Below, one piece after another: positions 6,041 through 41,300 of a stretch of 64,000 nucleotides of DNA. A program made the translations under genes and the position numbers. Positions within the stretch are counted from its first letter, which is position 1, and each line of letters starts with the position of its first letter. The DNA comes from Yuukianura sp. NJ FZ-2021 (lineage: Eukaryota): the NCBI GenBank assembly GCA_046563655.1, contig CM102290.1, forward strand, positions 6,262,001-6,326,000, read 5' to 3'. The notes below the pieces were generated by a model. The model searched no databases. It was not told where the DNA came from and saw only the letters and a list, made by a program, of their open reading frames with translations.

Positions 6041-6050
6041 TAGTAGTAGT

Positions 6051-18645: not shown

Positions 18646-18875
18646 AGGCTCTTCATAACCTGTTTGTAAGCATTCTATTAATTCATTCCCAGTTAAAATT
18701 TTTTCGAAGGAAATATTATTAGTCCTTATTGATTGTTTTATTTTTTAAAATGGCAATGGTCGGGGCAATTTAAATACTGTCTCCCTGCCGACGCCATCTG
18801 ACGGTGGAAATAGGAATGAAAAAGGTTCCGAGCATTTCCGTTTGGAATTTAATTTGTCTTTTTTGTTTTTAGAAA

Positions 18876-21800: not shown

Positions 21801-23007
21801 TGGATGTTACATACCCTGGTAGGAAAATTTTATAACAAATATTGAATCGTTTCAAGTGATTGTAATTCACGGTCTACTTACAGCTGAACTACACGATCAA
21901 CATCAGTGTTACCCTTTGGCGGTTGAACGGGCACACGTCAGCAATGAAATGCTTAGCCCTTTTCAAAAAAAGATGCTTTCTCAACTTCCAATTAAATATA
22001 TGGATCATCAGCAGAAGCTAGTTTCGCATTTTTTACCTCACACAAACTACATATGTCTCGCCAGCAATTTGCAGTTTTATGTCCAACGAGGACTTCAGGT
22101 GCAGAAAATACACAAGATACTTGCCTTCAAGCAGATGGCCTGGTTGAAGCCTTATGTCGAGTTCAATAGTACCAAACGGAGTTGTGCGAAGAATGAGTTC
22201 GAGCGGATGTTCTACAAGCTCTGTGTGAATGCTGTTTTCGGCAAAGGAATGGAGTCCGTAAGGAAGAGGATGAATGTAAGAGTGGTCAACGACAAACGAA
22301 CAGCGCTAAGGCTGATTGCAAGAAGCCAGTTTCTGTCACATGACATATTGGGGAAGAACTTAGCTTGCTTCAACATGCAAAAGCCTTGTGTTACACTCAA
22401 CAAGGCAATTTACACCGGATTTACAGTTCTGGAATTAAGCAAGTTACATATGTACAAGTTTCACTACAACTACGTGAAGAAAAAGTGGGGTGAACGTGCA
22501 AAGCTTCTCATGACCGATACCGATAGCCTGGCGTACCACATTACAACGACTGATGTGTATGAAGATATTTCTATGGACTTGCAGCATTTCGACACAAGCG
22601 TGCTTTCACCCGCTGACCCATTGTACAGTACTCACAACAAAGGAGTTATTGGGAAAATGAAAGATGAAGCTAAAGGAACAATTATTTCAAAATTTGCTGG
22701 AGTCGGGCCGAAGTCTTATTGCTTTCTTGGAGATGATACGCAAACGCCGACTTACAAAAAAATGGCAATGAAAGGCGTACCCCAAAGAATTCAGAAAAGT
22801 TCAATTTCGTTTCATATGATGAAGAATGTTTTATTTAAGCAAAAAGTTTTTGCATGCACTAGCAAGTCAATGCGTTCATATAAACATAAGGTGTATAACA
22901 TAAAGAGTACGAGAGCTGCACTGCATGGATTTGACTCAAAGAGGTACATTTTGAAAGATGGAATTTCTACATTACCCTTTGGTCATTACAAAATTAATCA
23001 GGAGTAA
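18876..23007 (+). CDS. Protein-primed family B DNA polymerase (pPolB), 6 exons
   Basis: Introns 20575-20650, 20722-20793, 21440-21494, 21675-21734 and 21819-21883 are all GT-AG. Splicing restores DHDHLTG|CFRG, ILPVV|MHNLRGYD, GMRG|GISQ, DP|ELI and YP|AELHDQH, collinear with Polinton A pPolB. N-terminal C2H2 fingers, WDMLNLYG, K..VNAVFGK, TDTDS. Confidence 0.93.
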
Positions 23008-23031
23008 ATAAATCAAAATACTGCAACACAT

Positions 23032-23728
23032 TTATATGTAGACTTTCAAAATTAATCGGATCTCCGTTCGGCAAATCGGGCAATGAGATTGAGTAGTACA
23101 ACAATCTTGACAGGTTGATAGATGGCAGCACGGTGCAAACATGTAGGTCGTGGTTTGAGATAGGCAAATTTTGCATGTGAACATGCTTTTGAGGTTGTTG
23201 AACTCGGTTTCTAAAATTGATTACAAACAAACTGTATACACCAACAGAACAAACGAGAAGTAACTTTTGTATATGAATTAAAGTTTCAATGCACACCTGG
23301 ATCAGAATCAAGCTTTCCGGTTTGAGCTATCCCTGCATCTGCCTGGTTATTCTGAAATTGCATTATTCGAGATTTACAACAACTTTAGAAACTTATAAGT
23401 CCATCCTTACATTTTCTTGAACCTGGCGTCCATTTATATAATGATATGCACAATCAGGGTTATATATTTGGTGTTCCAGTGATGGATTATCCAATTGATT
23501 CCACGTAGATAAGCATAGCCCGCAATAAAAGCAGATAGAACAATCCTTATGTTCTGTGAAAAAGAAGCCTGCCCTTGCCATGTTCACAAATGGTGGTAAT
23601 TTGTCACGCATTGCAGTTGGATAGCTAGAAATTCGTTTTTCGAGCTGAACGTATTCTTTAAAGGTAGGTCCTCCATCATTTGCTGCAATCACAGGCATTG
23701 TGAGAACCTCAATTGTTTCGGAAAGCAT
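23032..23728 (-). CDS. iap: Inhibitor of apoptosis (single BIR + C-terminal RING), 3 exons (23728-23411, 23351-23297, 23210-23032), ~183 aa
   Basis: BIR: RISSY...MARAGFF...CFYC-x16-H-x6-C. Exon 3, missed by the ORF track, reads CKICLSQTTTYMFAPCCHLSTCQDCCTTQSHCPICRTEIRLILKVYI*, an IAP-type RING. Splice phases are compatible. Confidence 0.9.
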
Positions 23729-23838
23729 GATGCACTACACACAAAGATCTTTGAAAGTTAGTTGGTATCAAAAGAACGGTCACTTAATGTGTAGACTTCT
23801 GATGCAAAACTGGTACTGGCTGAATGGTTTCACTAGCA

Positions 23839-24699
23839 TTAGAAAAACTTCCAGGCGGATCCCTTAGCAATTGGTGTTTGGTAATCCTCCCCTGATGGAT
23901 TGTCCCCTTGATTGAGATCATCATCGTTACTTTCGTCATTTTGATCATCTTCCATGTCCTCTTCTTCTTGTTCCTCCTCCTGTTCTTCTTCCTCGCCTTC
24001 TTCTAGTGGTTGGCCAACCATTGGAGTATTTTGAGCAAGTAGCGCTACCGTTGTCAAGTTTAGTTTGTTGCGAATATGAATTCCGAGTAATTCTTTTGGT
24101 ATATGTACTTTCTTCAAAATGTAGATGAAAGTACGTATCCCCTTTGGGGGAGTGACTTTCGCCGGCGGCTTGAGAACGTATGACAACAAATCAATAATAT
24201 TGGCGCCATTCCTAGGTACACCCTTAAAGAATACTTGACCCGACTCATCCCAGGAAATGTCGTTAAACGCAGATGTTGAAAGAATCTGCATTATTTTTAA
24301 ACCTGTCAACTGGTACTTTGTCGGTAGGAATTTGGCCAAATGAGTGTTGTAAAGTGCTTGGTCTACGGTTGTCTCTGCATCATGCTTCATGGTTCCTGTT
24401 GTCGTAGAAGTTGAATGTTTAGATGTCATAGGTAGAGGATCCGTTTTAGAAACTTCTACACGAAGAGGAGTTTCCGTCAAGGCTGAAAAGCTTGCGTGCA
24501 ATCCCTTCACCATACTATTGAATAAGGCTAACTTGATGTCATCCGAAATGGAATTCCAATGCAGAATATTTGTAGCTGCTGCTTGTTTCCTGTTAAACAG
24601 GTGAACTGAAGAAGATTTGTGTAACAACTGAGGAGCCCTTTGGATGGCAATAAGTTTCTCGTACTCTAGATGCGGTATTAACTTCATTTTTTTGGACAT
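23839..24699 (-). CDS. Conserved Polinton protein of unknown function
   Basis: Homolog of 2817-3995; acidic C-terminal tract; start overlaps the upstream stop (TAATG). Confidence 0.8.
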   Translation of the reverse strand: MSKKMKLIPHLEYEKLIAIQRAPQLLHKSSSVHLFNRKQAAATNILHWNSISDDIKLALFNSMVKGLHASFSALTETPLRVEVSKTDPLPMTSKHSTSTTTGTMKHDAETTVDQALYNTHLAKFLPTKYQLTGLKIMQILSTSAFNDISWDESGQVFFKGVPRNGANIIDLLSYVLKPPAKVTPPKGIRTFIYILKKVHIPKELLGIHIRNKLNLTTVALLAQNTPMVGQPLEEGEEEEQEEEQEEEDMEDDQNDESNDDDLNQGDNPSGEDYQTPIAKGSAWKFF

Positions 24700-25046
24700 T
24701 ATAAACCGACAAGATGAGTTAACGCATTCGCTGCGAGTCCGCCAAGTAGCGACAACGCTGGGGTTACCAACAACGGAAGAAATCCTCCCTTTTGTATAAG
24801 GAATTGTTTCTTTTTTTTGAGTGATAACTTTTTTGCGAGATTCCTGATACCAAACTTATGGCGTCGTAGTTTGTGTTTGTGGTTGTTGCTCAAAGGTACA
24901 TTACCTATCAAAGTATTCAGTGCAATTTCTGACAATGCGTCAATGTTGTCCTTTGAGGCTTTCTTTATTAGTTTCTTTCGACGGAGAGCTTTGCACCTCG
25001 TCACCTCTTCCAAGAACGTCTTGTTTCTAACTAATCGCTTTGTCAT
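24699..25046 (-). CDS. Small basic conserved Polinton protein (QKGG-FLPLL tail)
   Basis: Homolog of 4013-4372. Confidence 0.85.
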   Translation of the reverse strand: MTKRLVRNKTFLEEVTRCKALRRKKLIKKASKDNIDALSEIALNTLIGNVPLSNNHKHKLRRHKFGIRNLAKKLSLKKKKQFLIQKGGFLPLLVTPALSLLGGLAANALTHLVGL

Positions 25047-25060
25047 TCTAAGACAATCAG

Positions 25061-25772
25061 CTAGCTCGGTAAGTAAACGATGTGGTCTTCTTTCGGCAGG
25101 ATTCCCGACTGTATTCGTAGATTGTCGTGACAGCTAGGGTGCAAATTCAGAAATAAGTAGGAATACGGTTGTCGGGTTGCTTCCTCGTATGCGTTTAGAA
25201 TAGCACTTGGCTTCCTTGGGTTGAGCTGCCTACTGAGGTACATAACTTGAGAAGGGAATGAGGGTGTTTTGCAGATTGTCATGTAATGTGTATTGAGACG
25301 AATATCCCTAGCATATTTCCCTTGTGGCAGCAGATTTTGAGACAGAAAGATGACGGATATTGACCTGGAATTCGAAAACGTTTTGTAAATTCTATTCAAT
25401 GTAAGAGAAGCTATGTTTCACATACCTATGATGAACACCGCAAGTGAAAAGTTCTTGAATTGATTTATCTTTTAATGAATCCGCCATTTGGTCATCGATG
25501 ATTAACAGCGTATTTCTTGCATAAACTTCGTCCAACTTTATTCCTTCCAAACACCTAACTCTAGAATCCATTGACCTCATGACGTCATAGCCGCTTTGAT
25601 ATACCTTATAGAATACAATTACATCGTCGATCCTAGGTTGCACCATCATATCCAGGTTTTGAATAATCTTGCAAACGAAGGTTGTTTTTCCGGACATTGT
25701 ACCACCGGCAACGATGAATGTGAATGGATGTCTGAGTTGAATTTGATGGAAATCGTACGTATTGCTCTCCAT
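25061..25772 (-). CDS. DNA-packaging ATPase, 2 exons (25772-25426, 25364-25061)
   Basis: Walker A GGTMSGKT, Walker B LIIDD. A 61-nt GTATGT...TTCCAG intron restores GVHHR|SISVIFLSQN. Confidence 0.92.
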
Positions 25773-26518
25773 TAAGCTGATATCTTCCTAAAATGCAGAG
25801 TTAAAGTCACCTGTCCTTTGTCAATCGGCAACTCCTCGCCAAACTCGTCACACAGTACAATTGAGATGATGTCAAACTCGCTCCTTGAAATCGGAAGGTA
25901 AAACGGTTGCGGAAAAGTTTGAGTGACTGCTTGTCCTTCGTTTCCAATTATGTTTACCATACGAAGTAGAGGTACAAGAGAGGATCCAACGATTTGAGAC
26001 TCTATTATGTCGCAGTATAGAAACATGTGATATCGCCCACCGAGTATATCCGGTGGAGAATCGGCTATGAAGTAGGTATTTTGCTGATTTGCATTAAATT
26101 CAAGCGTACCATTATATCCCAAAATGTACGAGAGTTTCTCACTTATTTCGATACTAAATCCGGCTTCTACTTCCAGGCTCACGCGGCACTTTGTTTCGTA
26201 GTACTTCAAGTTGGAAGGGACGCTGTGCTTTATAAAAGATAAGTTGACCATGTGAACTAAATGCTCTACGGTACTGTAATGAAGTAAAGGAAGCTCTATA
26301 TTCCCGGCAGTCTTCGCCCCATTATACTCAATGAGATTATCTTTCTCAGCTCCGGTTAGAGTTTTTATGGAGCACACATAAGTCAACTCAGTAAGCCCGA
26401 CCTCGTATAAAGAAGGGTCAAGTTCTATTTTGGATGGAAGTTTAATCCTGTAGTTACTCGTTCGGTTGTCAGAAAAATAACGTGAGCCGTTCGACGGTAA
26501 TGTAATATAGAAGCCCAT
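25772..26518 (-). CDS. Minor capsid protein (PX/penton-like)
   Basis: FYITLPSN..YFSDN..SNYRIKLP...YEVGLTEL; MFLYCDII..QIVG....PLLR; TLHFR. Confidence 0.92.
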   Translation of the reverse strand: MGFYITLPSNGSRYFSDNRTSNYRIKLPSKIELDPSLYEVGLTELTYVCSIKTLTGAEKDNLIEYNGAKTAGNIELPLLHYSTVEHLVHMVNLSFIKHSVPSNLKYYETKCRVSLEVEAGFSIEISEKLSYILGYNGTLEFNANQQNTYFIADSPPDILGGRYHMFLYCDIIESQIVGSSLVPLLRMVNIIGNEGQAVTQTFPQPFYLPISRSEFDIISIVLCDEFGEELPIDKGQVTLTLHFRKISA

Positions 26519-26519
26519 T

Positions 26520-27449
26520 TTATTCGTTTCGACTTATCTTGCTGAGCTCTTGACTGTAATAGATCCCAGAAATTTGTTCACCGGAAAGATCTTTGACACG
26601 GTACGTCACTGGAATAGAATTGATGACTTCACAGACTTCGAAAATTTCGTTTGTAAAAGCAGGCCAATAACCCTTGCCAAATATGTGTTTCGTTTTATCA
26701 AGACGTACGCGGTCATATAGTTTGAGAATGGCTTTTGGTTTAGATTTGGAATACAAGTCCTTATAAGATTCCAACCAGACGTCCATTTCATTGTATTTAT
26801 TAACGTCGCATGGCGCCACTTTCGTCCGAGAATGTATCTTGCTGTTATAGGACTTCAATAGAAAGGGCAAGGCCTCAATGTATCTCTTTTGACCGGTTTC
26901 AGTAAGATGTCTGGAAATGGCTGTGCATATTGTTCGGTTAAACCTTTCAATAACACATGAGCCGAAGTCAGAGAAGTTGTGGTACATTAATATGCCGAGA
27001 GACTTCGCCCACTTCCGGAATGCAGCTGACCAAAATTCTCCACCTTGATCACATTCTAGCGTAACGGGTCGTCCCTTCCCGGAAGAAATGATTTTCTTGA
27101 ACGTTTGAATAACTTCACTAGTTTTTTTAGATTTCATGGGCACAGCAAATGCATACTTTGACAAGACATCGATCGCCGTTAAAAGACAAGAGTAGCCATC
27201 GTTCTCTTCAGTGTATTTCGGCAAGAACACAATATCAGCCTGCCAAAGATAGTTTAATGCTGGCGATATTACTCGTCTTCTACGAAATCTACACCTTCGT
27301 CCTTTATGACGTGTGTATGAATCTTGACTTTGTAAAAAATTCAATGCTGCAGACTGAGAAATGCCATGCAACTTGCTCAAATGTTTGTTTCCACACAAAT
27401 AACTCGATCTTCCAATCCGCTTGTATGACTTTGCGATGTCAGATTTCAT
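26520..27449 (-). CDS. Retroviral-like DDE integrase
   Basis: WQADIVF...DVLSKYAF...ECDQGGEF...IERFNRT. First ATG at 27449. Confidence 0.95.
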   Translation of the reverse strand: MKSDIAKSYKRIGRSSYLCGNKHLSKLHGISQSAALNFLQSQDSYTRHKGRRCRFRRRRVISPALNYLWQADIVFLPKYTEENDGYSCLLTAIDVLSKYAFAVPMKSKKTSEVIQTFKKIISSGKGRPVTLECDQGGEFWSAAFRKWAKSLGILMYHNFSDFGSCVIERFNRTICTAISRHLTETGQKRYIEALPFLLKSYNSKIHSRTKVAPCDVNKYNEMDVWLESYKDLYSKSKPKAILKLYDRVRLDKTKHIFGKGYWPAFTNEIFEVCEVINSIPVTYRVKDLSGEQISGIYYSQELSKISRNE

Positions 27450-27527
27450 ATTCTTTAATAAGATAATAAATTTGTAGAGTATCAAATTGGATTACATAAA
27501 ATTTTATATGGTTGTAGGAAATTAAAC

Positions 27528-28076
27528 TTACATATTGAGGAGAACTTCTAAAATTTCACAACACTGAACTATTTTAAGCAATTCTTGAGGTTCACTCGTC
27601 GAAGTTATTCTACTATCGTGCTGCAAATTAATTGCTACAAAGTCTCTTACAATGGCATCGTTTATATCTAGATCAAAATCGTTAAACTTGCTCAGAATTT
27701 TTTCGAATGATTCTCCCCTGATTCTGTGAAACAAATAGTACAGTGCAAACTGGCCGCAAGCGTCACTCTTCTCTGGTTGTACTCTAAGACTGCTCATTCT
27801 AATGACATCAGCCTTTGAGTAAAGAAAATTTACAAAGCTGGGAGTGTAAAACTCAATTGGCATTGCACAGCTGTCAAAAAATTCAACCTCTCTACCTCCG
27901 CTGTTTTTGAACATACTGATCCAATGCATTCCTGGTTCCTTTGAAGATTGGGAATTAACAACGATGGCGAACTGATCCGATGTAACAGCCTTCAATTTGT
28001 CAGAGGGTAGAACTGCGGTTTGATATGATTTGTTGAGGCTCCTATTCAAAATCTCCAAGATCTCGGTAGTGTTCAT
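27528..28076 (-). CDS. Adenain-like cysteine maturation protease
   Basis: Catalytic H (GMHW), D (FFDS), Q and C (QPEKSDACGQFALYYL). Confidence 0.93.
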   Translation of the reverse strand: MNTTEILEILNRSLNKSYQTAVLPSDKLKAVTSDQFAIVVNSQSSKEPGMHWISMFKNSGGREVEFFDSCAMPIEFYTPSFVNFLYSKADVIRMSSLRVQPEKSDACGQFALYYLFHRIRGESFEKILSKFNDFDLDINDAIVRDFVAINLQHDSRITSTSEPQELLKIVQCCEILEVLLNM

Positions 28077-29374
28077 TGTGCAACGACTGCTTGCCGGTAC
28101 TTGTCAATCTCCAAGACGCCTTGTTGCTCAGACAGTATGACACAATGGACTGATTTTTCTAAAGCAGTACCAAACTGAACTTCAATCTTCACACTCCCAG
28201 ACTTCTCCAAATGCAGCAACGCATCGTTCCCAGTGGGCTGAAGAATGTCAAATGTAAACAGTGCATTGTTCTCTTTATAGTCATCACGTGCAAAAGATAG
28301 TCCCACGTCATGCCCCGCTATTCCTGTGCTTGTGAATAGGAGATAGTATGGCAAAAGGCATTCGTCGTTTGCAAAATCCAGAGATAACGGTCTTATTGGA
28401 AGAGACACATTGTTGACTGAAATAGAAATGGTCTTGATGTTGTAATTATGGAAACGAAAAGGATTTGAATTGACGTCTCCATTGAATGCCAAGCTGTCCA
28501 CAAACCCGATTATAAGCCGGCTTGGTACAGTATTTGCAAAAAGATTTTCCTCTAGAGCAGATGAATTTCCTTGAGCAATCGTAAAATACTTTACATCAGT
28601 TGCCTTAAACGGGTATTGAGCGATTTCGCCTTTTTCTAGAAGTCTTTGATGAGCCAAGATGATGCTAGGAAATGGCAGTTGTTTTCGGATGTAATAAGTT
28701 GCTGACAAGAACTTTATTACACCGTCGTCACCTTTTGTTTTTGAGAAAAGAGCAAATGCATCAGAAGCTCTGGTTAAACAAATGCGAACGTTGACATCAT
28801 TTAATATATAGCGATGTTGATTTGCCAGGTTAAATCTCAACTTGTCGATTAGCTCAACAGGTTTCGATTCACTAATGAAGGCTTTTCGCTTTTCCCATCC
28901 CGAATTTGTTGAATCAGCAATTCCACCCAGTGTGTCTTCGTAATACAAAGCGCAACCCCCTTGTGAGCTCTTGTAATCTTTTCCGTAGCACAGCAATGTT
29001 TCAATGTATGCACGATAAGCGTAGCCGTTATTGCTTGTGGAAACAAGTTTTTCGTTGAAATAAATATCGAGCTGTGAGAAGAGTGCGTGCATGAAGAGGT
29101 TCACAGTACCAACGGTTGACTCTTTACCCAGGTTAGTTCCAGCCTTCTGGGTTACTTTAAGTTTCACCCGTAGGAAGCTGTCATTCAAATCAAGATAATG
29201 GTTGCTGTTTCCCGGAATTTTGAATTCGATTTTGTTTGACGAATCCTGAACATTGACAACTGGCTGATACTCTTCGTACATGCTGTAGTCACAGGTAGTA
29301 TCTGTTGCTGGAATTGAAAATAAGTCAACTTCTCCCCGAATAGCTGGTTTAGACCGAGAATGTAGTAGCGACAT
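28073..29374 (-). CDS. Major capsid protein (PY/hexon-like)
   Basis: 433 aa; DLFSIP.T...YQP...IEFKIPG...YLDL, NLFMHALFSQ, YAYRAYIETLL, PSRLIIGFV...AFNG...NPF.F motifs. Confidence 0.95.
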   Translation of the reverse strand: MSLLHSRSKPAIRGEVDLFSIPATDTTCDYSMYEEYQPVVNVQDSSNKIEFKIPGNSNHYLDLNDSFLRVKLKVTQKAGTNLGKESTVGTVNLFMHALFSQLDIYFNEKLVSTSNNGYAYRAYIETLLCYGKDYKSSQGGCALYYEDTLGGIADSTNSGWEKRKAFISESKPVELIDKLRFNLANQHRYILNDVNVRICLTRASDAFALFSKTKGDDGVIKFLSATYYIRKQLPFPSIILAHQRLLEKGEIAQYPFKATDVKYFTIAQGNSSALEENLFANTVPSRLIIGFVDSLAFNGDVNSNPFRFHNYNIKTISISVNNVSLPIRPLSLDFANDECLLPYYLLFTSTGIAGHDVGLSFARDDYKENNALFTFDILQPTGNDALLHLEKSGSVKIEVQFGTALEKSVHCVILSEQQGVLEIDKYRQAVVAQ

Positions 29375-29862
29375 TATGCAAATATATCCAATTTGGTTCT
29401 CTTTGCAGTCTTTGTTGACTTCGTTGAAGCCTTTCTCTTTTTCGATGCCTTCGGTTTCTTAGGTTTTCTTGACGCTTTGTTTCCTACTTTGGATGGCTTC
29501 CGTTTCGTGTATGTACGCTTCCGTTTAACTCCCACACCTTTCCCTGTTTGAGATCCAACTGCTGATTTCAAAAGATCGGCACCAACGTTTTTCAAAAATC
29601 CGAGGCTGTTTTCCTTCAGAGCGTGCTTTACTGACTGACGTCCTTTCGCAATCCCACTCACAGTTTTTACTGCTGCTTCCTTTGCATGGGGCATAATCCA
29701 CTTCATGATTATAGGCAAAGCGTATTTTGCAATTCCTCCTAGGATGGAACCAATGCCTCCTCCTCTCTGTCGTACCCCATGAAACACAGGAATTCCATGG
29801 CCAATTTGGTCCCTCAAAGTATTGTAGTAGTGTTCGTGATTAAACACGTACCTCTGCCGCAT
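29374..29862 (-). CDS. Basic core-like protein
   Basis: QIGHG, QRGGGIGSILG and QTGKG motifs, amphipathic middle, K/R-rich tail ending DIFA; homolog of 617-1312. Confidence 0.88.
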   Translation of the reverse strand: MRQRYVFNHEHYYNTLRDQIGHGIPVFHGVRQRGGGIGSILGGIAKYALPIIMKWIMPHAKEAAVKTVSGIAKGRQSVKHALKENSLGFLKNVGADLLKSAVGSQTGKGVGVKRKRTYTKRKPSKVGNKASRKPKKPKASKKRKASTKSTKTAKRTKLDIFA

Positions 29863-30097
29863 TGTAGATAGATGTTTTCAGTTTGACTTAAGAATGATCA
29901 CTGAGGGCTGAATTTCGAACTATGATTAATATGACTATTAGTCTACAATAGAATAACCGGAAAGGAATTCAAGCCCAGCTTTTATGATATAAACGGTTTC
30001 TAATGTTAAAAACGTTTATGTTTCAAACATTGCTTTACATGAAGATTTTGATTATTTCAGAGTATATATTGAATTCACTTTGAATTAAACAATGGTA

Positions 30098-30422
30098 AGT
30101 GGGTTAGCGCAATCGATAAGGTGGTGGCATCAAATCGAGGGAGCCTGGGGTCGATTCCCATTAGCAGTAATAAAAAAAATTAAAAAAAAAAGTTAGGTTG
30201 CTACTCTATTTAAACTCTTCGTATAGTCAAGCATTCTTCTCTCACGGATGCCTCGACTTGTTGCTCTCTGTTCTTTGAGTCACTGTTCCATTTCCACCAT
30301 ACTGGACAAGGTGGAATGAGACAATGACTTAAAGAGCAGAGAGCAACAAGTTGAGGCATCCGTGAGAGAAGAATGCTTGATTATGCGAAGAGTTTAAATA
30401 GAGTAGCAACCTAACTTTTTTT
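30098..30422 (+). ncRNA. Candidate Pol III transcript: tRNA-like leader plus ~113-bp hairpin
   Basis: A-box-like TAGCGCAATCG (30105-30115) and B-box/T-arm-like TGGG-GTCGATT-CCCA (30146-30160). Inverted arms 30185-30298 and 30310-30422, ending in T7 with no earlier T4 run. Confidence 0.6.
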
Positions 30423-30454
30423 AAAATTTAAATGGAATATGTACTTAATTTTTT

Positions 30455-30562
30455 CACGAGTGACAAAACGGCAAGTGCCGTTTTGACACTCTTTGTCACT
30501 TGGTCACTTTGTCAAAAATGACAATGAGTGTCAGAACGGCACTTGCCGTTTTGACACTCGTG
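30455..30562. repeat. Subterminal nested palindrome (two flip/flop hairpins)
   Basis: GAGTGACAAAACGGCA-AG-TGCCGTTTTGACACTC and GAGTGTCAGAACGGCA-CT-TGCCGTTTTGACACTC in inverted arrangement, overlapping the inner TIR edge. Confidence 0.85.
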
Positions 30563-30625
30563 GTCATTCGGTTCTGGGGCGACTTGAGATTTGTGGGGCT
30601 TGAAAGTGGCTCATCATCCTCATCA
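30546..30625 (-). repeat. Right terminal inverted repeat of Polinton B
   Basis: Exact reverse complement of 15176-15255, followed by the TSD GTTGTT. Confidence 0.95.
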
Positions 30626-30653
30626 GTTGTTTTCGTTATGCGGTTAGTTCGAA

Positions 30654-30686
30654 CGCCGCCGCAAGGCGGCGCCACGGATTGCCTAG
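30654..30686 (+). mobile_element. Helitron-type 3' terminus
   Basis: GC hairpin CGCCGCC-GCAA-GGCGGCG, 11-nt spacer, CTAG, then T. Confidence 0.6.
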
Positions 30687-31384
30687 TTTCAAATATTGAA
30701 AAGCTATTCAGTCCCGGACCCCATTCCCATTTCAGTTCCTATTTTTAGACAAAACAAGCGACTGTGGATCTTCACTTGAATTGTTTTGGTGGAAGTGGTT
30801 AAGGTGGAGTGTGGATGACAAATTCCTACCACACCTCATCTCCCGCTTTCTATACTAAAAACTATAGAAAAACCTGTTGTAGGGGGTTTGTTTGTTGGAG
30901 AAAGAAGCCACTTCATTGTTACTTAACGACCCCTCTCCAACAGGTGGAATCCACAATGGAACACAATCCACTTCCACTCCATCCATAAAAATTGAGGGAA
31001 GAAGTGGTTAAACTCTCTGGTGGGAATTTGATCCTCTCACAATTTAATTCTTTTGGAGAGACTTACTTGGATGAGATGGGAGAGGACTGGTGAGTCCATG
31101 AGTGTCTTTAGGAAAATTGTATCCGTACTTCCGTCCAGAGAGGAGAGATGACTGCGCACTGCTTGGAAAGCAACTGAAAACAAAAGAAAAGAGGGAATGA
31201 GTGACTTGGTTTAGAGTGAGATGGTGGGTCTGGTGGCTCACCATTGTCAATGGCATAGAGGTCAGAGGCGCTTTCCAGTGAGGCTCGGTGGGAAGGTGAA
31301 AGGTCAAGGAGTGATCTGCGCTCAGAACTAACGAAAACCATTACTCCACACAAACTAAAAAGTGTCAGTGGACCATTTCTCTGT

Positions 31385-32160
31385 TTAAGAACGGTAATCG
31401 ATAGAGAAAGGAGGTGCCTTCATGAGGTTGTTGTTGGGAGTTGGTTGTTCCTGTGTTGTTCCGTTCCTCACTCGAGGTTTCGGAATGCGAGGGGGCGTGG
31501 CGTGGTTTTCCAGCAGACGATTCACGTTTCCCAAAACGTTTTTGTAGTAGGTGACTGTGGGCTCCACTTCCGCCTCTTCATCAGACGAACCAAATTCACT
31601 CACACTCGGCCCAATTCCAGGACTGCCTTCTGCCTCACTAAAAAAAACAAACAGGATACCAACGGTATCACTTAACAAGGAACAAATTACATAAAAATTG
31701 TGTAACCGCTTCACTTGTTAATGTTAAGTGATAAGTCTTTTGATTTTTGAACTTTGCATATACTGGAATGAAAGAAGAATGCTGATGTTACCTTTGAGTG
31801 CTATGTTGTTGTTTTCCAACCAGTCAGGAAGATCCAGATGCGGGCCAGAGTTGTGGACAGAGTAAACACTGTTTTCTCCACTGATTGGCAGTTGAAGGTC
31901 CTTGAGAATCTTGGACAAGTCAGCACTCTGGTTCGGAGAAATGTCGTCGTATTTACGATTTCTGTCGCAAGATCGTTGCTCCTGCGACCAGCTCTTCTTC
32001 TCTGGAACAACGTCCGTTTGCACTCCAATGTCAGATGACTACTTGTGTTGGGATTTGATCAATGTGTCCAGTTGCTCTACGTGTTACTTAATGGAGTCAA
32101 CATTAATCGACTACTTTACCAGGCAACACTCACTTGCCAACTTCTGACAGTAGTTTTGCC
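31385..32160 (-). pseudogene. Degenerate exon-like coding fragments of unknown family
   Basis: Short exon-like frames (QTDVVPEKK...NIALK|GT; EAEGSPG...) with in-frame stops upstream; no recognisable domain. Confidence 0.25.
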
Positions 32161-33329
32161 TTGGAATGTTGGAACTCGGAGTCTAATAGATAATTATAAT
32201 GCTTTTTCAGTCTGCCGGAAGCTATTTGAACGGAATGGGGATGAACACTTACAGCCGGGCATTACTGTTTACCAAACGCTGTACTACGAAGCCTGCTTGA
32301 CACTGAATGTTCCATTTGGCGTTAGAAAGCTCAGCTTGAACTTATCAACTTATGTTTTATGTCGTAACTTTCGTTTTTAAAGCTAAATCGTCCCTTGCAA
32401 CTTTGTAATTCACGAAGAAACTAATATCTGTACCAAGTACTAGTTGTTGGTCTACTTAATTAGTAATTGACAGCTATTGAGAGGGAAGCAGTCGATGGCT
32501 AACATGGGGAACTGCGTTTTAGTTGGAGCGTTTATGTTGACTCCATTTGAAACGCTGGTTCAACCATGTTGTGATTCTGACATTGTGAGATTGAAGCCAT
32601 TTCTAATCACTAGAATAAGTATTAACTTTTAATCGTAGGCAAGTTATGGTTGTCATTTTAAATTTTAAATTCTATTTTACAAATTGCGATGGTGTGATTG
32701 TTTTCATCGCAATGTTTAACTCCAAGTTTAATATTTTTGGGAACCGTAAATAAAATTGGTTTGTACAGTACTTTGCGACAGAATTAAACGATTATTTAGT
32801 ATACATGATTACTTAATTAGTTAAGCTTTCGTATTTTTTTTGCACGATATATTGAGATTTCCCGCCAAAACCTAAACCAAAACAAAACCATAGCCTGCTC
32901 AGCTTGAAATTTCCGCCAAATTCAGTCGTTAGGGGATGACGAGGCTTCAGCTGACCTTGAGATGACCTTAAACTCTGTTGCTAACGTCCTCTGGACGATT
33001 GACCTTCAAACAACCGCCAAATTCTGTTGCTGGGGACGCCAGCGTCCTTTGCCCTTCAAATGACCGTCAAACTCGGTTGCTGGGTTGCTAGGGGAAAGTA
33101 GGGTCGTTTGACATTGAATTCACCTTGGGATCACGAAAGGAATGCGTGGAGGGCAAAGTCCATCACGTGCCCCTGCGAACAAAGGAAAAGGGTAAATTCC
33201 TTCCCTCCTAAAGAACAAAGGAACCGAGGTTTCATTCTTGGTGAAACCAGGAGAAGACTTCATTCCATCGCCAGACGTCGAAGGGGAAGGAGCTCCAAAA
33301 GAAGACTCTCTCCAACGACCCACCGAAGG

Positions 33330-33760
33330 AAGGAAGGCCCCACCTGAGACCCACCACACAGCGGAGACTACAACCACTACTACAATAACGAAGAGGACTC
33401 TGCCAAACTCCACTCGACTCCAGTAAGAGGACGAAGACCACACCGAAGACCTCAGCTACTGGAAGACAGCCCCACCAACACTCAACGGAGACAGCACCAG
33501 ACTACTGCACCCACCGAAGAAGACTTACGGCACAACTCCACTCGGCTCCAGCAGAGGACTTGAAGCCCCACTACTGGACCCTACACCACCACTGAAGGAA
33601 GGCTCCACCTCAACACTCAGCGGAGACTTCAACTACTTCAGCCACCAAAGAAGACGCCAGCAGACCTCCACTCGGCTCCAGCAGAGGACTTGAAGCCCCA
33701 CTACTGGACCCTACGCCACAACTGAAGGAAGGCCCCACCTTAACACTCACTGCTGGAAGA
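33330..33760 (+). repeat. Degenerate ~129-bp tandem repeat, about 3 copies
   Basis: CTCCACTCG(G/A)CTCCAG...GAGGAC recurs at 33408, 33536 and 33666. Confidence 0.8.
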
Positions 33761-33784
33761 CAGCTTCAACCACCGACTGCCGCC

Positions 33785-34630
33785 ATGGATGAACAGGAGA
33801 CCTTCCCGAAGTATAGCCGATGGACGGTTGGAGGAGTACATCGCGCCTTGATTGACAGCTCAAAGAAGAACCACGAACGACTCAACGACTTCAACACCAT
33901 CTACCGTCAGGAGACATCATCCCCACCAGCATTTAACTCGCCGTCACTACCGGATCGTGACTGCAGCGTAGTTCCAGAAGCCTCCTCTACCCTCAACACT
34001 ACTGCAGCGAAGGGCCCACCTGACTCACCGTCGCGCAAGGGATGCTGCAACTGGATGTCTCCTCGGGGCTTCTCTGGAGCTGGTTCAGGAAGTGCGACAC
34101 AACAATCTAAAGGCAGCTCTTCATTCCTCAAGCGGCCAAAGAAGAAGATGAAGCACGCTCAATATGGATTATGCAGATGTAACCACTTTGAAAACGACAA
34201 CATCAGTCAAATGGAGCAGTATCCGGGCCCAAAGGAACTTCCAATTGGAATGGGATGCAACCGCTCATCTACACTGTTGAAGGGCGACCGGACGGACAAA
34301 TTTCATCTACGACACACGGACTTCGTCACTTACTCAAAGAGTCCTGCTCAAATTGTACAACACCGAGATATCATTTTCTTCATCGCCTCGAAGCGGCCGT
34401 ATGGAATCCTCGACCCAGCTGCTTTCTTCGTCGTCGTCTCCAATGCTGGAGGAGACAATATCATGGTTCAACTCAAGATGGACAAGGATAACCCTCAGTC
34501 CAGGATCTTTTGTTGTTTCCATCCCAACGCGCCCGGAGTGTACGATGTGTCGGTAGTACTGGTCAATCAGCATATCGACGGAAGTCCGTTCCCTATCGAA
34601 GTGTCGATTGATCCTATGGTACCACTGTAA
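33785..34630 (+). CDS. Intronless ORF with a C-terminal filamin-type Ig repeat
   Basis: FHPNAPGVYDVSVVLVNQHIDGSPFPIEV matches the filamin/ABP280 repeat end (P..PG.Y.V.V....HI.GSPF.V). Confidence 0.65.
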   Translation: MDEQETFPKYSRWTVGGVHRALIDSSKKNHERLNDFNTIYRQETSSPPAFNSPSLPDRDCSVVPEASSTLNTTAAKGPPDSPSRKGCCNWMSPRGFSGAGSGSATQQSKGSSSFLKRPKKKMKHAQYGLCRCNHFENDNISQMEQYPGPKELPIGMGCNRSSTLLKGDRTDKFHLRHTDFVTYSKSPAQIVQHRDIIFFIASKRPYGILDPAAFFVVVSNAGGDNIMVQLKMDKDNPQSRIFCCFHPNAPGVYDVSVVLVNQHIDGSPFPIEVSIDPMVPL

Positions 34631-35721
34631 CAGTGGAGAAAGCTGTCAATCAATCTTCTAGTATTGATTGGCAGATTTCTCACTGGAGCACGGGAGAAGG
34701 GAATGAATTAGTTCATTCCTTTTTCGCGTGTTCCCTAATCAGGAGGGAGACGACCCCAGGGTGCTGACTGATCACCCTTATCAGCTGCGAAAAGTTTACG
34801 ACTTTTCGCAATCAACAGTAAAAGTCAAGTCATGAGTAATCTGACGTGACTTAAGTTTCACTTAGTTAGCATTACTAATTCAAATTGTAAGACAAAGTTT
34901 ATGTCTTTTTGTAAGAAAATAGATTAGAGAAAAAGACTAGAAAATTGATGATTTTAGAACTTTGTAGTTACAAAGTGTAGATTAGTTTGACATGTTTATT
35001 AGTTAATGAGTTCGAAGATCATGTTCTTGCATGTTCAGATCTTCTAATCTTTAGGGATAAATAGAGGATCGGTAGTCCGACCTCTTGGTCAGTTGTCCGG
35101 TAGCTTTTACTTAACTCTTAACTTCTAGTAGGCACTCGGCCAGCCTGGCCCTTAAGTCTAAATTAAAAGCATCTACTTTCACTTCTATTCCTTTTCTTCA
35201 CTTCTTTCAACTTCTAACTTCCAACGAGACGCTCCAGCCACCGTGGGTCAACCCGGGGAGTACCACCACCAACCAAAGTCTCCAGCCAACCCAAGGAGAG
35301 GTCGAGAGGTCAATCCAAACATCAGTAAGGGGTAGCGCCAAGGCCAGGCCAAAACCTCAGGTATGTAAAGCCACAGCACTTTACTAGTAAAAGTACTCAG
35401 GTCCTCCTGCTGGGTTATGCCCACAAATGTTTAAAGAGCATTGAAGTTTAGCTACTTTCACTTTCATTCCTACCGACTTCCACCAACCAATCCAAGAACT
35501 TAGGAAACCCCAGGACTAGTGCTAGACTAGTAGGTCATCGTTCTAACATAGATCAGTTAGGGAACAACTTCATGAGAATAGGTATTCCGTTCTCTTTTCT
35601 TTATTATAGATTATCGTTAGATTGATTGATTATTTCTCTATCGCCATTGATAGGCGTAGGAGTATGTAGATTAGATGATGATACGATGATAGTTAGAGTG
35701 AGAGATGGGAGAGGTTTCAAC

Positions 35722-35740
35722 TGGCGACCGTGACAGGATT
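35722..35740 (+). promoter_or_regulatory. Primer-binding site complementary to the tRNA-Arg 3' end
   Basis: TGGCGACCGTGACAGGATT is the complement of ...AATCCTGTCACGGTCG-CCA (insect tRNA-Arg(UCG) 3' end, recalled from memory), directly after ...CA-AC. Confidence 0.8.
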
Positions 35741-36824
35741 GGTTGTCATGGAAGTCGCTATTGTCTTTAGAATTTGTTTTCGGAACAATAGGGATTTAGT
35801 CAAGTAGACGGTAGAAGGGGTCATGGACACCTCTATTCATGCAGTAGTAGGTATGGTGGTAGAAAGGTACCACATTAGTACTGACCGGTGGACTGTCTTT
35901 TTGGGACAATAGGAGATGTTGTAGTAGGCACCCCTTTTCCTTCTAGGTTATTATTTTAGGGAAACGATAAGTTAGGTTAAAATTTTTCATAACGATATTA
36001 GGTTAGATTTCTTCTAGGTAGGTTAACTAATTTTAAGGACTTTTAGTTACTAGACAATTGACCCTCCAAGGGCTAGGATAGGCCAATGGAGTAAGACTTT
36101 AAGTGATTGCAGAACTTGAGTTCCGTGTCCGGAAAGGATTGGATTGTATTATTCCTTGTGAAAAGGACCAGTCGGGTCGATGAGTTGACCTTAGCAAACG
36201 GTGGAATCATGACCGGGCTATAGTTGTGGCTTTGCCCTATAGCTGCTCTTTCGTCGGGTGACAATCAGAAAACTTGGTGAGGGTGGAGTCATGACCTCCC
36301 GAGAGACAGGTTAGTATGTAGGAACAAGATTGGGGAGTGGTCACTTAGAGATATCACGATGGATCCGAAGGGGCGTGGACCCGCCTTAACTGGGCGGTCC
36401 ATCATAGTTAGGGTGTTGATGTAGGTGTTAGGGATGTTCCTTCAGTAAGATGGCTAAGGTAGTAGAGGGCCCAATGGACTACCGAAGAATGTTAAGGCGT
36501 TTTCGTTTACATTTTTGTAAAAGCTGTGAAAGCTTATAGAGCTGTGAAAGCTCACAGAAATTCACAATCCATGCCATCTGACCGGGCCAGTAGCCTAAGG
36601 CTCGTTGTCAATTTTGCTCTGAAGTATACCCCATGCCTCCGGAAGAGGGCATAAGAGATTTTAAAAATTTTTGGGATTGTGAGAGGAACTGGTCTGACCC
36701 TGAACTAAAGCCACATCAGAGGGGTGATTGACCCGAAGATTGATGGGTCACCTACCTTATACAACTTGGACGTTAAGGTTAGGAAACTGGAATTGTTGAA
36801 ATTCCTTTTATTTATCTTCTTAGA

Positions 36825-38207
36825 ATGACGAGGATGATAGGAATTATTTCGATTTGGGTGATGACCTTGATCTGTACAACAACTACAATGGCTACCGTTC
36901 TCAGTTATGAGAACGAGGACACCATCCGCTGTCACGAAGGGATGGAGTACCCTATGAGGAGACGGAGACAAATTTTGGATCGGAGGTGGAAAACTTCAAA
37001 TTTAACTTGGGACGTCAAAGAAGACATTCCCAATACGATGGATTTTAAAGATCTGATAGAGAACTTTGAGTTTGCTTTTCAAAAATGGGAAGAGATTTCG
37101 AATTTTACGTTTAGTCGTAGAGTCAATGAAACTGTAGACATTTCAATTCAATTTGCAAAAGGCTATCATGGCGACGTCATGGTTTTTGACGGTGTAGGAG
37201 GGATCCTAGCACACGCCTACTACCCGAATGTTGGGTTAGGCGGAGACATTCATTTTGATGCAGCCGAAAATTGGACTACCACACCTGGTAGAAAAGGAGT
37301 AGATGTATTTTCAGTTATGGTTCACGAGATAGGGCATGCACTAGGCTTATCACACTCTGAAGTACCAGGATCAGTGATGCATCCGATGTATCATCTCATT
37401 GACAAGAACATGTCTATTGGAAAACGGGATAGAAATGCCTTGCGTGATCTTTATAGATTTAGTCGAAATCTATCGCATGGTAGGAGGGACGCATCCCCTA
37501 CCTTGGATAACTTGATACAAAGTATGTGTAAGGAGAATTTCGAACATGTTTTAAAGTGGGGAAATGAGTTCTTCATTTTTAATGACAACTACCATTATCG
37601 CCTTTCAAAGGGAAAAGTTTCTTTTCCATATAAAGTTTTCAATGCCAACTATTTTCAACATTACCCTCCGAACATGGGAATTGAGTTAATTTTCCGATTT
37701 TATGAGAAAACATTTCTCATTGGTGATGATCAACTCTGGGAGTTTGGGTTCGCAGCAACATTATCACCCGGGTATCCCAAACCAATGACAGAACTAGGAA
37801 TCAATGAAACTAGAGTTATCGGTGTATTGTCATCCCCAAAACGACTGTATTTACAGTTAGAAAACGGCTGGAAACAGTACTATATACATCAAAGATTCCT
37901 GCAAGAATGGACCTACTCACAAGGCATGCTACCCCAACTTACTAATCTCACCCAGGCGTTTAACGTAATTGATATCCATCCGGAAGGCTACACCACGTAT
38001 AATGGTAGCCATATTTTAGATTTTGACACCAATTTGGTCTTACATTCCGTGAAGCCTTTAATGGACTATTTGGAGTTGCCATGCAATTCCGTTGAGGCTT
38101 TGGTAGTGTCAGAACCTATCGGTGGCCTGCCGTTAACAGGAATAGCTTTAGGTAGTACCACTGTTGTAGTCATAATTGTGGTGTTAGTTTGCTGGTTTTG
38201 CACCTAA
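36825..38207 (+). CDS. Intronless membrane-anchored matrix metalloproteinase (M10A)
   Basis: Signal peptide, RRRR furin site, HGD..FDG.GG.LAHAY.P, GD.HFD..E.W, zinc motif HEIGHALGLSH, Met-turn SVMHP, hemopexin-like region, hydrophobic C-terminus. Confidence 0.95.
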   Translation: MTRMIGIISIWVMTLICTTTTMATVLSYENEDTIRCHEGMEYPMRRRRQILDRRWKTSNLTWDVKEDIPNTMDFKDLIENFEFAFQKWEEISNFTFSRRVNETVDISIQFAKGYHGDVMVFDGVGGILAHAYYPNVGLGGDIHFDAAENWTTTPGRKGVDVFSVMVHEIGHALGLSHSEVPGSVMHPMYHLIDKNMSIGKRDRNALRDLYRFSRNLSHGRRDASPTLDNLIQSMCKENFEHVLKWGNEFFIFNDNYHYRLSKGKVSFPYKVFNANYFQHYPPNMGIELIFRFYEKTFLIGDDQLWEFGFAATLSPGYPKPMTELGINETRVIGVLSSPKRLYLQLENGWKQYYIHQRFLQEWTYSQGMLPQLTNLTQAFNVIDIHPEGYTTYNGSHILDFDTNLVLHSVKPLMDYLELPCNSVEALVVSEPIGGLPLTGIALGSTTVVVIIVVLVCWFCT

Positions 38208-38250
38208 GGGTATCCAGTAGGTTTCGTACCTCTATTTATTTATCCTATTT

Positions 38251-38350
38251 NNNNNNNNNNNNNNNNNNNNNNNNNNNNNNNNNNNNNNNNNNNNNNNNNN
38301 NNNNNNNNNNNNNNNNNNNNNNNNNNNNNNNNNNNNNNNNNNNNNNNNNN
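38251..38350. other. Assembly gap (100 N)
   Basis: Run of n. Confidence 1.
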
Positions 38351-41300
38351 AAAATGTAATTTACTTTCTGTTCATTCTCACATTTGCATGTTCATTCTCA
38401 CAAATTTAAGTCGTTTTGCGTCAAAATGGTGCTCGGCATTCCCCTGGGTGCCGTATTCCAACCCCAGATAAAATTCGAGGCGGAGCGATTTATCCCGACT
38501 TTTAAGTCCGCCCTATCCAGATTTAATGGCGATCTATCCACACCAATGAAACTTGGGGTCCTGCAGTACGTTTCATAAGGATTTCAGAAAAACTAACTCA
38601 TTTTCACCCGGCATCGTTCCGCGCGGAGAGTTTTTCGAATGTTTTGTTTTGAAACAAATTTTCATAAATAAAAGTAACGAGATGAGGGACGACACAGCAA
38701 GTGAAAGTGGGTTCCTGTAGCACTTTTTATGAGGATTTCAAAAATGTTGTTGCCTTTTACCCAGCATCGTTCCGGAATGCATTTCTTTTGAATTCTCTGC
38801 TTTGAAACATGAATTTTCATAAATAAAAGGTAACAAGATGAGGGACGACACAGCAAGTGAAAGTGGGTTCCTGTAGCACTTTTTATGAGGATTTCAAAAA
38901 TGTAGTTGACTTTTACCCAGCATCGTTCCGGAATGCATTTCTTTTGAATTCTCTGTTTTGAAACATGAATTTTCATAAATAAAGGTAACAAGATGAGGGA
39001 CGACACAGCAAGTGAAAGTGGGTTCCTGTAGCCCTTTTTATGAGGATTTCAAAAATATAATTTACTTTCTGTTCATTCTCACATTTGAATGTTCATTCTC
39101 ACAAATTTAAGTCGTTTTGCGTCAAAATGGTGCTCGGCATTCCCCTGGGTGCCGTATTCCAACCCCAGATAAAAAATTCGAGGCGGAGCGATTTATCCCG
39201 ACTTTTAAAGTCCGCCCTATCCAGATTTAATGGCGATCTATCCACACCAATGAAACTTGGGGTCCTGCAGTACGTTTCATAAGGATTTCAGAAAACTAAC
39301 TCATTTTCACCCGGCATCGTTCCGCGCGGAGGTTTTTTCGAATGTTTTGTTTTGAAACAAATTTTCATAAATAAAAGTAACGAGATGAGGGACGACACAG
39401 CAAGTGAAAGTGGGTTCCTGTAGCACTTTTTATGAGGATTTCAAAAATGTTGTTGCCTTTTACCCAGCATCGTTCCGGAATGCATTTCTTTTGAATTCTC
39501 TGCTTTGAAACATGAATTTTCATAAATAAAGGTAACAAGATGAGGGACGACACAGCAAGTGAAAGTGGGTTCCTGTAGCACTTTTTATGAGGATTTCAAA
39601 AATGTAGTTTACTTTTACCCAGCATCGTTCCGGAATGCATTTCTTTTGAATTCTCTGTTTTGAAACATGAATTTTCATAAATAAAGGTAACAAGATGAGG
39701 GACGACACAGCAAGTGAAAGCATCGTCTCCGGAATGCATTTCTTTTGAATTCTCTGTTTTGAAACATGAATTTTCATAAATAAAGGTAACAAGATGAGGG
39801 ACGACACAGCAAGTGAAAGTGGGTTTCCTGTAGTACGTTTTTATGAGGATTTCAAAAATATAATTTACTTTTCACCCAGCATCGTTCTCACATTTGCATG
39901 TTCATTTGACAAATTCTCTGTTTTGCGTCAAACATGAATTCCCCTGGGTGCCGTATTCATAAATAAAGGTAACAAGATGAGGGACGACACAGCAAGTGAA
40001 AGTGGGTTCCTGTAGCCCTTTTTATGAGGATTTCAAAAAATATAATTTACTTTCTGTTCATTCTCACATTTGCATGTTCATTCTCACAAATTTAAGTCGT
40101 TTTGCGTCAAAATGGTGCTCGGCATTCCCCTGGGTGCCGTATTCCAACCCCAGACAAAATTCGAGGCGGAGCGATTTATCCCGACTTTTAAGTCCGCCCT
40201 ATCCAGATTTAATGGCGATCTATCCACACCAATGAAACTTGGGGTCCTGCAGTACGTTTCATAAGGATTTCAGAAAACTAACTCATTTTCACCCGGCATC
40301 GTTCCGCGCGGAGGTTTTTCGAATGTTCTGTTTTGAAACAAATTTTCATAAATAAAAGTAACGAGATGAGGGACGATACAGCAAGTGAAATTGGGTTCCT
40401 GTAGCACTTTTTATGAGGATTTCAAAAATGTTGTTGCCTTTTACCCAGCATCGTTCCGGAATGCATTTCTTTTGAATTCTCTGCTTTGAAACATGAATTT
40501 TCATAAATAAAGGTAACAAGATGAGGGACGACACAGCAAGTGAAAGTGGGTTCCTGTAGCACTTTTTATGAGGATTTCAAAAATGTTGTTGCCTTTTACC
40601 CAGCATCGTTCCGGAATGCATTTCTTTTGAATTCTCTGTTTTGAAACATGAATTTTCATAAATAAAGGTAACAAGATGAGGGACGACACAGCAAGTGAAA
40701 GTGGGTTCCTGTAGCCCTTTTTATGAGGATTTCAAAAATATAATTTACTTTCTGTTCATTCTCACATTTGCATGTTCATTCTCACAAATTTAAGTCGTTT
40801 TGCGTCAAAATGGTGCTCGGCATTCCCCTGGGTGCCGTATTCCAACCCCAGATAAAATTCGAGGCGGAGCGATTTATCCCGACTTTTAAGTCCGCCCTAT
40901 CCAGATTTAATGGCGATCTATCCACACCAATGAAACTTGGGGTCCTGCAGTACGTTTCATAAGGATTTCAGAAAACTAACTCATTTTCACCCGGCATCGT
41001 TCCGCGCGGAGGTTTTTCGAATGTTTTGTTTTGAAACAAATTTTCATAAATAAAAGTAACGAGATGAGGGACGATACAGCAAGTGAAAGTGGGTTCCTGT
41101 AGCACTTTTTATGAGGATTTCAAAAATGTTGTTTCTGTTACCCAGCATCGTTCCGGAATGCATTTCTTTTGAATTCTCGCTTTGGGTGCCGTAAACATGA
41201 ATTTTCATAAATAAAAGGTAAGTCCGCCCTATCCAGATGAGGGACGATACAGCAAGTGAAACTTGGGTTCCTGTAGCACTTTTTATGAGGATTTCAAAAA

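Follow-up and report, generated by a model that had tools for sequence, protein, structure and literature searches.

Within a 64,000-nt stretch of the Yuukianura sp. NJ FZ-2021 genome (GenBank assembly GCA_046563655.1, contig CM102290.1, positions 6,262,001 to 6,326,000 of the forward strand), hereafter called the window, we found what appears to be a long terminal repeat (LTR) retroelement carrying a gene for a matrix metalloproteinase (MMP). With moderate confidence, we interpret positions 34626-38250 as the 5' portion of a single member of an LTR retroelement family that has many copies and carries a captured MMP kept in functional form. The combination of a 1.09-kb LTR and a primer-binding site (PBS) complementary to tRNA-Arg(TCG) suggests that the element replicates by reverse transcription. 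The first open reading frame (ORF) of the element would be a captured, intronless MMP of the cellular, membrane-anchored type and not gag, an assignment that we hold with middling assurance. Judging from the LTR, the PBS and the multi-copy features, this is a real and unusual cargo-bearing LTR element, which may be autonomous, non-autonomous or composite.

The edges of the LTR were placed with public DNA contigs aligned to positions 30600-38250. The 5' LTR extends over 1,094 bp on the plus strand (34626-35719), begins with TGTAAC, ends with TTTCA, and thus has the termini TG...CA. At the 5' edge, a low-depth contig of the flank (914 nt) stops at 34625, and the loose contig ends upstream of 34624 are mutually unlike (agreement 0.58). 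At the 3' edge, contigs of two separate studies terminate at 35719 and 35720. In addition, one contig of run X4, which belongs to a different study and has a different organism label, contains an LTR copy that continues past 35720 into unlike sequence, as a 3' or solo LTR would. The region therefore displays TG...CA termini, repetition in the genome and differing flanks, as expected of an LTR, and it shows the highest summed contig depth. A preliminary description of this DNA had already recognized an LTR-like end; the end is real (TTTCA at 35719), whereas the start given there, 35340, falls inside the LTR, whose true start is 34626. A second LTR was not found within the window.

The LTR abuts a 344-codon frame (33596-34630) that is low in depth and unique-looking and encodes a C-terminal filamin/ABP280 repeat (Pfam E = 1e-6). 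The stop codon of this frame (34628-34630) coincides with the insertion point of the LTR, and the insertion may have truncated or terminated a host exon. No homologue of the filamin-repeat ORF (33785-34627) was found by protein search. A 130-nt tandem duplication lies nearby, at 33501-33749.

The PBS, TGGCGACCGTGACAGGATT (19 nt; 35722-35740, plus strand), is separated from the LTR by two nucleotides (AC) and complements the 16 nt at the 3' end of tRNA-Arg(TCG) together with CCA. It is unique in the window even with up to three mismatches allowed, and matches were obtained in none of 100 shuffles. As a test of the identity of the tRNA, the reverse complement of the last 16 nt of the PBS was searched in metagenome contigs. 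The search gave at least 119 matching stretches, from which 80 loci went into tRNA prediction. ARAGORN detected a tRNA in one of the 80 loci (L057, 144-216), namely a tRNA-Arg with the anticodon TCG. Its final 16 bases equal the searched pattern and are followed by a run of T, as in eukaryotic RNA polymerase III genes; the other 79 loci are chance matches. Because the 3' end of the predicted tRNA equals the pattern, the PBS is an exact complement of the tRNA-Arg(TCG) 3' end plus CCA (19/19 nt). The tRNA-Arg PBS proposed in the preliminary description was thus borne out. A 14-mer of the PBS had no match in the literature searched, and an Rfam scan of 33500-38250 gave only three sub-threshold matches, at chance level.

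Downstream of the PBS lies a non-coding leader of 1,084 nt (35741-36824, plus strand), which contains 19 ATGs and no frame longer than 63 aa, counted from stop to stop on both strands; the absence of a gag ORF from this stretch of about 1.1 kb, as reported earlier, is therefore confirmed. The leader is followed by an intact, intronless matrixin ORF of 460 aa (36825-38207, plus strand), also as described before, which was characterized by Pfam, sequence alignment, a motif script, AlphaFold2 and Foldseek. The earlier statement that the MMP occupies the place where gag is expected is a positional one only, the MMP being the first ORF after the PBS. An assembly gap of 100 N (38251-38351) conceals all sequence 3' of the MMP. 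Because it begins 43 nt past the stop codon, any gag/pol genes and the 3' LTR are out of sight.

The protein matches Peptidase_M10 (PF00413) with E = 8e-48 over profile positions 1-158 of 159. The hemopexin Pfam score was 21.0 bits, marginally below the cut-off of 21.3, and sequence matches in the PDB extend across both the catalytic and the hemopexin domains of full-length MMP-12. The N-terminus begins with a hydrophobic, signal-peptide-like stretch (residues ~4-26), which is followed by a furin-type RRRR motif (residues 45-48) and the catalytic domain (~51-213) with the zinc site HEIGHALGLSH at 167-177. A hemopexin-like propeller of four blades is modeled at ~235-415, with Cys235 and Cys420 as a pair, and the C-terminus is hydrophobic from residue 437 through the final residue, 460. 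This hydrophobic stretch could anchor the protein either as a transmembrane helix devoid of a tail or as a glycosylphosphatidylinositol (GPI) signal. The motif script found nine N-glycosylation sequons, and an alignment of 22 sequences has 23 invariant columns, every one of which is retained in this protein. The catalytic features of matrixins (HExxHxxGxxH, the Met-turn, and the structural zinc and calcium ligands) are present, and so are the furin motif, hemopexin domain and C-terminal anchor that characterize membrane-type MMPs.

Two parts of the usual architecture were not detected. No PG_binding_1 match was obtained with Pfam, and the usual 60-80 residues of the prodomain are absent; a degenerate switch, IRCHEGMEYP (Cys36), aligns with PRCGVPD and is followed by RRRR. 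We considered an upstream exon as the source of the missing prodomain and rejected it, because the ATG at 36825 leads directly into the signal-peptide-like stretch. The cytoplasmic tail domain DUF3377 (PF11857) likewise gave no Pfam match. AlphaFold2 run on the single sequence gave an unusable model with a predicted local distance difference test (pLDDT) score of 34, and the model was built from the alignment instead (pLDDT 74.7). It resolves into a catalytic domain and a propeller with four blades, plus a terminal helix. The best Foldseek matches of the model were full-length MMP-1, MMP-13 and MMP-12, and the modeled catalytic domain superimposed on solved structures with a template modeling score of 0.9 and a root mean square deviation of about 1.3 Å.

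Close relatives of the protein were not found. An exhaustive HMMER search among 1.84 billion representative sequences gave no MMP relative above about 47-48% identity. The top matches were multi-matrixin proteins, and a retroelement domain was present in none of the 19 that were scanned with Pfam. A word-indexed search gave at best 57% identity, confined to 18% of the query; in longer alignments the identity was about 41%. In the ESM Atlas, the clusters of chordate MMP-14, MMP-11 and MMP-16 were nearest. A profile search showed that IMG/VR viral contigs of 100-230 kb hold matrixins, which share at most 45% identity with the window MMP in the catalytic domain only. Specific peptide patterns revealed no close relative in virus collections, and a degenerate DNA pattern gave no matches there. 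In a 49-row tree, the window MMP formed the longest terminal branch (2.4 changes per column) and had no supported partner; it fell outside a clade of eight viral rows with 100% support. The phylogenetic analysis called for by the preliminary description has thus placed the window MMP outside that viral clade, although its own position lacks a supported partner. The window MMP represents a fast-evolving orphan lineage with a cellular-type architecture.

Evidence for repetition of the whole unit came from three runs of one sample (X1-X3), possibly the source of the window itself. The summed contig depth in X1 was 34 in the flank (33928-34439) and rose to 1100-2900 in the LTR (34440-35719), 700-1000 in the leader (35720-36743), 880-1670 in the first half of the MMP (36744-37511) and about 400 in its second half (37512-38250). 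The 241 contigs of X1 were distributed over identity classes of 99% and above, 95-99%, 90-95% and below 90% as 75, 51, 67 and 48, respectively. Within the MMP, position 36908 had an alternative letter in six X1 contigs, the maximum at any one MMP position. The whole of 34626-38250, the MMP included, thus exists as many diverged variants, and the adjacent flank looks single-copy. A contig of 1,037 nt with ~86% identity, present in X1 and X2, spans leader and ORF in colinear order (36443|36520-36553|36670-36961). Because this diverged contig keeps the leader and the ORF colinear, the leader-MMP junction is old and has been copied as a unit. The 155 nt preceding the ATG (36670-36824, plus strand) are conserved and form the 5' edge of what we call the MMP module: the diverged X1/X2 copy resumes matching at 36670, and the match of the high-depth X4 contig starts only at 36669.

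The variation among the copies suggests that the protein sequence has been maintained. Among the 21 best-supported ORF variants, 14 are synonymous and seven are conservative replacements. With 292 synonymous and 1,088 non-synonymous sites in the ORF, the ratio of non-synonymous to synonymous substitution rates (dN/dS) is roughly 0.13, and the binomial probability of at least 14 synonymous changes out of 21 is 8e-6 (p0 = 0.21) or 6e-4 (p0 = 0.30). The sole indel listed inside the ORF is 3 nt long (at 36865) and keeps the frame. The estimate is crude but its direction is clear, and it points to purifying selection on the MMP among the copies, which was one of the checks suggested in the preliminary description. 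A search for other copies, also suggested there, yielded many diverged variants in the public contigs but none elsewhere in the window. A single-copy MMP, syntenic in related species and unlinked to this LTR and PBS elsewhere, had been named as the finding that would speak against the element; instead, the MMP sits together with the LTR in a multi-copy repeat. Overall, the preliminary observation is confirmed and its interpretation supported in part, with gains on linkage, copy number and selection.

Sequence signals around the leader suggest how the MMP could be expressed. The acceptor-like site at 36801-36823 (plus strand; 17 pyrimidines out of 20, then TAG) ends 1 nt before the ATG. Equally strong sites occur at only 0.44 per kb per strand over 1-38250, and its position next to the start codon is therefore unlikely to be due to chance. 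A donor-like sequence, CAG/GTATGT (35358-35366, plus strand; last exon base 35360), matches MAG/GTRAGT in eight of nine positions and lies within the LTR, 5' of the PBS. Both sites had been pointed out in the preliminary description, and both are present and high-scoring. An alternative donor-like sequence that was absent from that description, CAG/GTTAGT (36307-36315, plus strand; last exon base 36309), also matches in eight of nine positions and lies 3' of the PBS. Only six donors of this quality occur on the plus strand of the 38 kb, and two of them (35360 and 36309) are in the element. The stretch 35031-35363 is free of ATG over 332 nt, the seventh longest of 692 such gaps in 1-38250, and the ATG that closes it sits within the GTATGT of the donor. 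Since this ATG-free run ends inside the donor at 35360, we favor that donor; splicing from 36309 would keep 18 ATGs (35361-36309) upstream of the start codon in the mRNA. Translation from the unspliced RNA is disfavored because the 19 leader ATGs precede the MMP start. The putative 5' non-coding exon of the spliced mRNA would accordingly be the ATG-free segment 35034-35360 (plus strand), which ends at the donor. We also considered the polypyrimidine tract as the minus-strand polypurine tract (PPT) of another element and rejected it, as no LTR-like start follows the tract.

Inspection by eye revealed a TATA-like ATAAATA (35057-35063, plus strand) as a putative promoter element, and a strict search for TATAWA gave no match in the LTR or leader. 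The sole AATAAA/ATTAAA match in 34626-36824 is an ATTAAA at 35162-35167 (plus strand), a putative polyadenylation signal at the R/U5 border. Together, the two motifs are weak evidence compatible with a transcription start near 35085. In the mechanism that we consider most likely, transcription would begin in the LTR, and splicing from 35360 to 36823/4 would remove the PBS and the ATG-rich leader. The resulting subgenomic mRNA would have an ATG-free 5' untranslated region fused directly to the MMP start codon, comparable to the mRNA of retroviral env. The MMP would then be routed through the secretory pathway, where furin would activate it at RRRR, and be displayed as an active protease on the surface of the cell or of a particle. 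The splice, the promoter, a gag-pol region past the gap and a contribution of the MMP to the element's spread are inferred, and a role at basement membranes is pure conjecture.

Run X4 provided a different picture of the MMP. The flank of the window is near-identical there, at a depth of 2-10, and the LTR and leader have depths of only 3-11. Two contigs carrying a homologue of the MMP, in contrast, reached depths of about 5970 (1,386 nt) and about 5320, roughly 1000 times the background depth of the run. The similarity of these high-depth contigs to the window is confined to 36669-~38156, with ~10% divergence in the aligned parts, and both contigs continue into unlike sequence past both ends. 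The abundant context may correspond to an element of high copy number, to a tandem array or to an agent that replicates.

Several points weigh against the interpretation as a cargo-bearing retroelement. None of gag, reverse transcriptase (RT), integrase, PPT and 3' LTR can be seen, as the contig breaks off 43 nt past the stop codon; the 2.5 kb that separate the PBS from the gap contain neither gag nor pol (protease, RT, RNase H, integrase), and no second MMP copy exists within the window. As the X4 contigs indicate, a homologue of the MMP module, including the 155 nt that precede the ATG, also occurs in a very abundant context without this LTR. A donor within the LTR and upstream of the PBS is unusual, and a second, equally good donor is present at 36309. 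The depth figures are sums over contigs and not copy numbers, and the dN/dS value is rough, as it is derived from the 21 best-supported variants out of several hundred differences over 30600-38250.

One alternative is a non-autonomous, transduced element with the structure LTR-PBS-leader-MMP-(PPT)-LTR, born of the uptake of an MMP gene by a retroelement and amplified in trans by an autonomous relative. The MMP would then be a passenger that benefits the host or no one at all. The LTR, the PBS and the multi-copy evidence fit this explanation equally well, gag is absent from where it should start, and a review (PMC6431247) documents that LTR retroelements and retroviruses transduce host genes. 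Yet 14 synonymous changes out of 21 and an indel that preserves the frame, among copies with as much as ~14% difference, are not what one expects of a mere passenger. No PPT or LTR start is seen in the 43 nt past the stop codon either, although this stretch is too short to judge. We regard this explanation as somewhat unlikely. The X4 pattern would also fit an MMP module (from 36670 onward) that is primarily part of another mobile or viral entity and that here merely sits beside or inside a truncated LTR element to which it is functionally unrelated. The restriction of the depth of about 5300-6000 to 36669-~38156, compared with 3-11 in the LTR and leader, would be explained in this way, as would the fact that the diverged X1/X2 copy resumes matching at the same coordinate, 36670; moreover, matrixin genes are present in the 100-230 kb IMG/VR contigs. 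In the organism of X1-X3, however, the leader and the MMP have similar summed depths, and the ~86% contig keeps them colinear, which indicates an old junction copied as a unit. In addition, the viral matrixins are not close relatives (at most 45% identity, in the catalytic domain only), and the window MMP lies outside their eight-row clade. A separate origin of the module thus seems rather unlikely to us.

An intact ORF under purifying selection would also suit a host MMP family that grew by segmental or tandem duplication, with an old LTR fragment upstream or serving as its promoter (an LTR-driven retrogene), and that no longer moves by reverse transcription. The cellular architecture of the protein, which resembles that of membrane-type MMPs, its nearest ESM Atlas clusters (chordate MMP-14, MMP-11 and MMP-16) and the lack of any visible RT are in line with such a family. 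Block duplication, however, does not account for an LTR with a summed depth ~2-3 times that of the internal part, nor for 5' flanks that differ and an X4 LTR copy that enters unlike sequence after 35720, which is the pattern of a transposed or solo LTR. The ORF is also intronless, stands out in the tree by its branch length (the longest, at 2.4 changes per column) and lacks any relative above about 47-48% identity. We therefore consider a host family of this kind quite improbable. Within the interpretation as a cargo-bearing retroelement, a more specific proposal is that the MMP serves as an accessory surface protein of a still-active retrovirus-like agent, either in an env-like manner or by opening the matrix for cell-to-cell spread. 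The cassette from 36670 would then be shared with a second, possibly episomal or viral entity, present at ~1000 times the background contig depth in the sample of a closely related organism. It would imply that a retroelement and another replicating agent have recently exchanged a matrix-degrading gene. We hold this proposal to be distinctly unlikely.

Membrane-type MMPs of animals comprise the furin-activated type I transmembrane enzymes MMP-14, MMP-15, MMP-16 and MMP-24 and the GPI-anchored MMP-17 and MMP-25. The window MMP resembles them in its signal peptide, a furin site of the RX[K/R]R type, HExxHxxGxxH with the Met-turn, a Cys-closed four-blade hemopexin domain and a C-terminal anchor. 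Unlike them, it lacks the PG_binding_1 prodomain and the DUF3377 tail, is intronless and multi-copy, shares only about 25-30% identity over the full length, and forms the longest of all branches in the tree. Retroviruses and env-bearing Gypsy-like elements express env from a spliced subgenomic mRNA. The logic proposed here is alike: the RNA would start in the LTR, the donor is located close to its 5' end, the acceptor directly precedes the ORF of a membrane glycoprotein processed by furin, and splicing would take out the leader. The differences are that the MMP ORF is located 5' and not 3' of the pol position, that it encodes an enzyme and not a fusion glycoprotein, and that the splice in the window is predicted from the sequence.

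Granulovirus genome papers mention a matrix metalloprotease. The large DNA viruses and the window share a mobile or viral genome with an intronless matrixin that is devoid of the standard prodomain. The carrier in the window is a retroelement, however, and the viral matches reach at most 45% identity, are limited to the catalytic domain, and belong to a clade that excludes the window MMP. Among retroelements, the review cited above (PMC6431247) describes host-type domains, including BIR, RING and MATH, in the giant planarian Gypsy-like Burro elements, an accessory ORF located upstream in a Burro-like element of Dugesia tigrina, one or two extra ORFs in plant Ogre elements, and onc capture by retroviruses as an example of host-gene transduction. 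An excerpt of a 2026 paper (PMC13465017) reports a B-IAP region acquired by Burro1. The element in the window is similar to such cargo-bearing LTR elements in its LTR and tRNA PBS, its cellular-type gene, an extra ORF 5' of the gag/pol position and its multiple copies. It differs in that the cargo is a complete membrane-type matrixin and that its own gag/pol is unseen. No retroelement carrying a matrixin was reported in the full text of the literature searched.

Other mobile elements and repeats surround the locus. A complete-looking Maverick/Polinton occupies 15176-30625 and is bounded by inverted repeats of 87 nt that are 98% complementary. It contains split PolB frames (18873-23007, plus strand), an rve integrase (26520-27491, minus strand), an A32/FtsK-like ATPase (25392-25787, minus strand) and further frames in the positions of the protease and capsid genes. 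A cargo ORF of this Maverick encodes a BIR (inhibitor-of-apoptosis) domain at 23393-23734 (minus strand; Pfam E = 1e-15). Relatives of its integrase were found only in metagenome contigs (61-69% identity). Just inside its right end, at 30185-30422, is an inverted repeat of 108 nt that is 93% complementary and has a 22-nt spacer. A second Maverick-like element or fragment at 1-11000 contains a 1,342-aa frame with DNA_pol_B_2 and Endonuclease_7 (6820-10848, minus strand), an rve integrase (4466-5488, plus strand) and a weak AAA match (6051-6725, minus strand). Behind the assembly gap, a 25-kb satellite array (38352-64000) is composed of a ~155-nt unit with higher-order spacings of 543, 698 and 388 nt, and many of its copies are 100% identical.

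Retroelements are known to take up host genes, but in animals and their relatives it is rare for a complete cargo gene to remain under selection. Should the protease serve the spread of the element, this would be a counterpart, among retroelements, of the matrixins found in large DNA viruses and a new answer to the problem of how virus-like particles cross the extracellular matrix. If, instead, the host uses the protease, the copies would represent a gene family amplified by retrotransposition. The abundant homologue in X4, in turn, hints at an undescribed agent.

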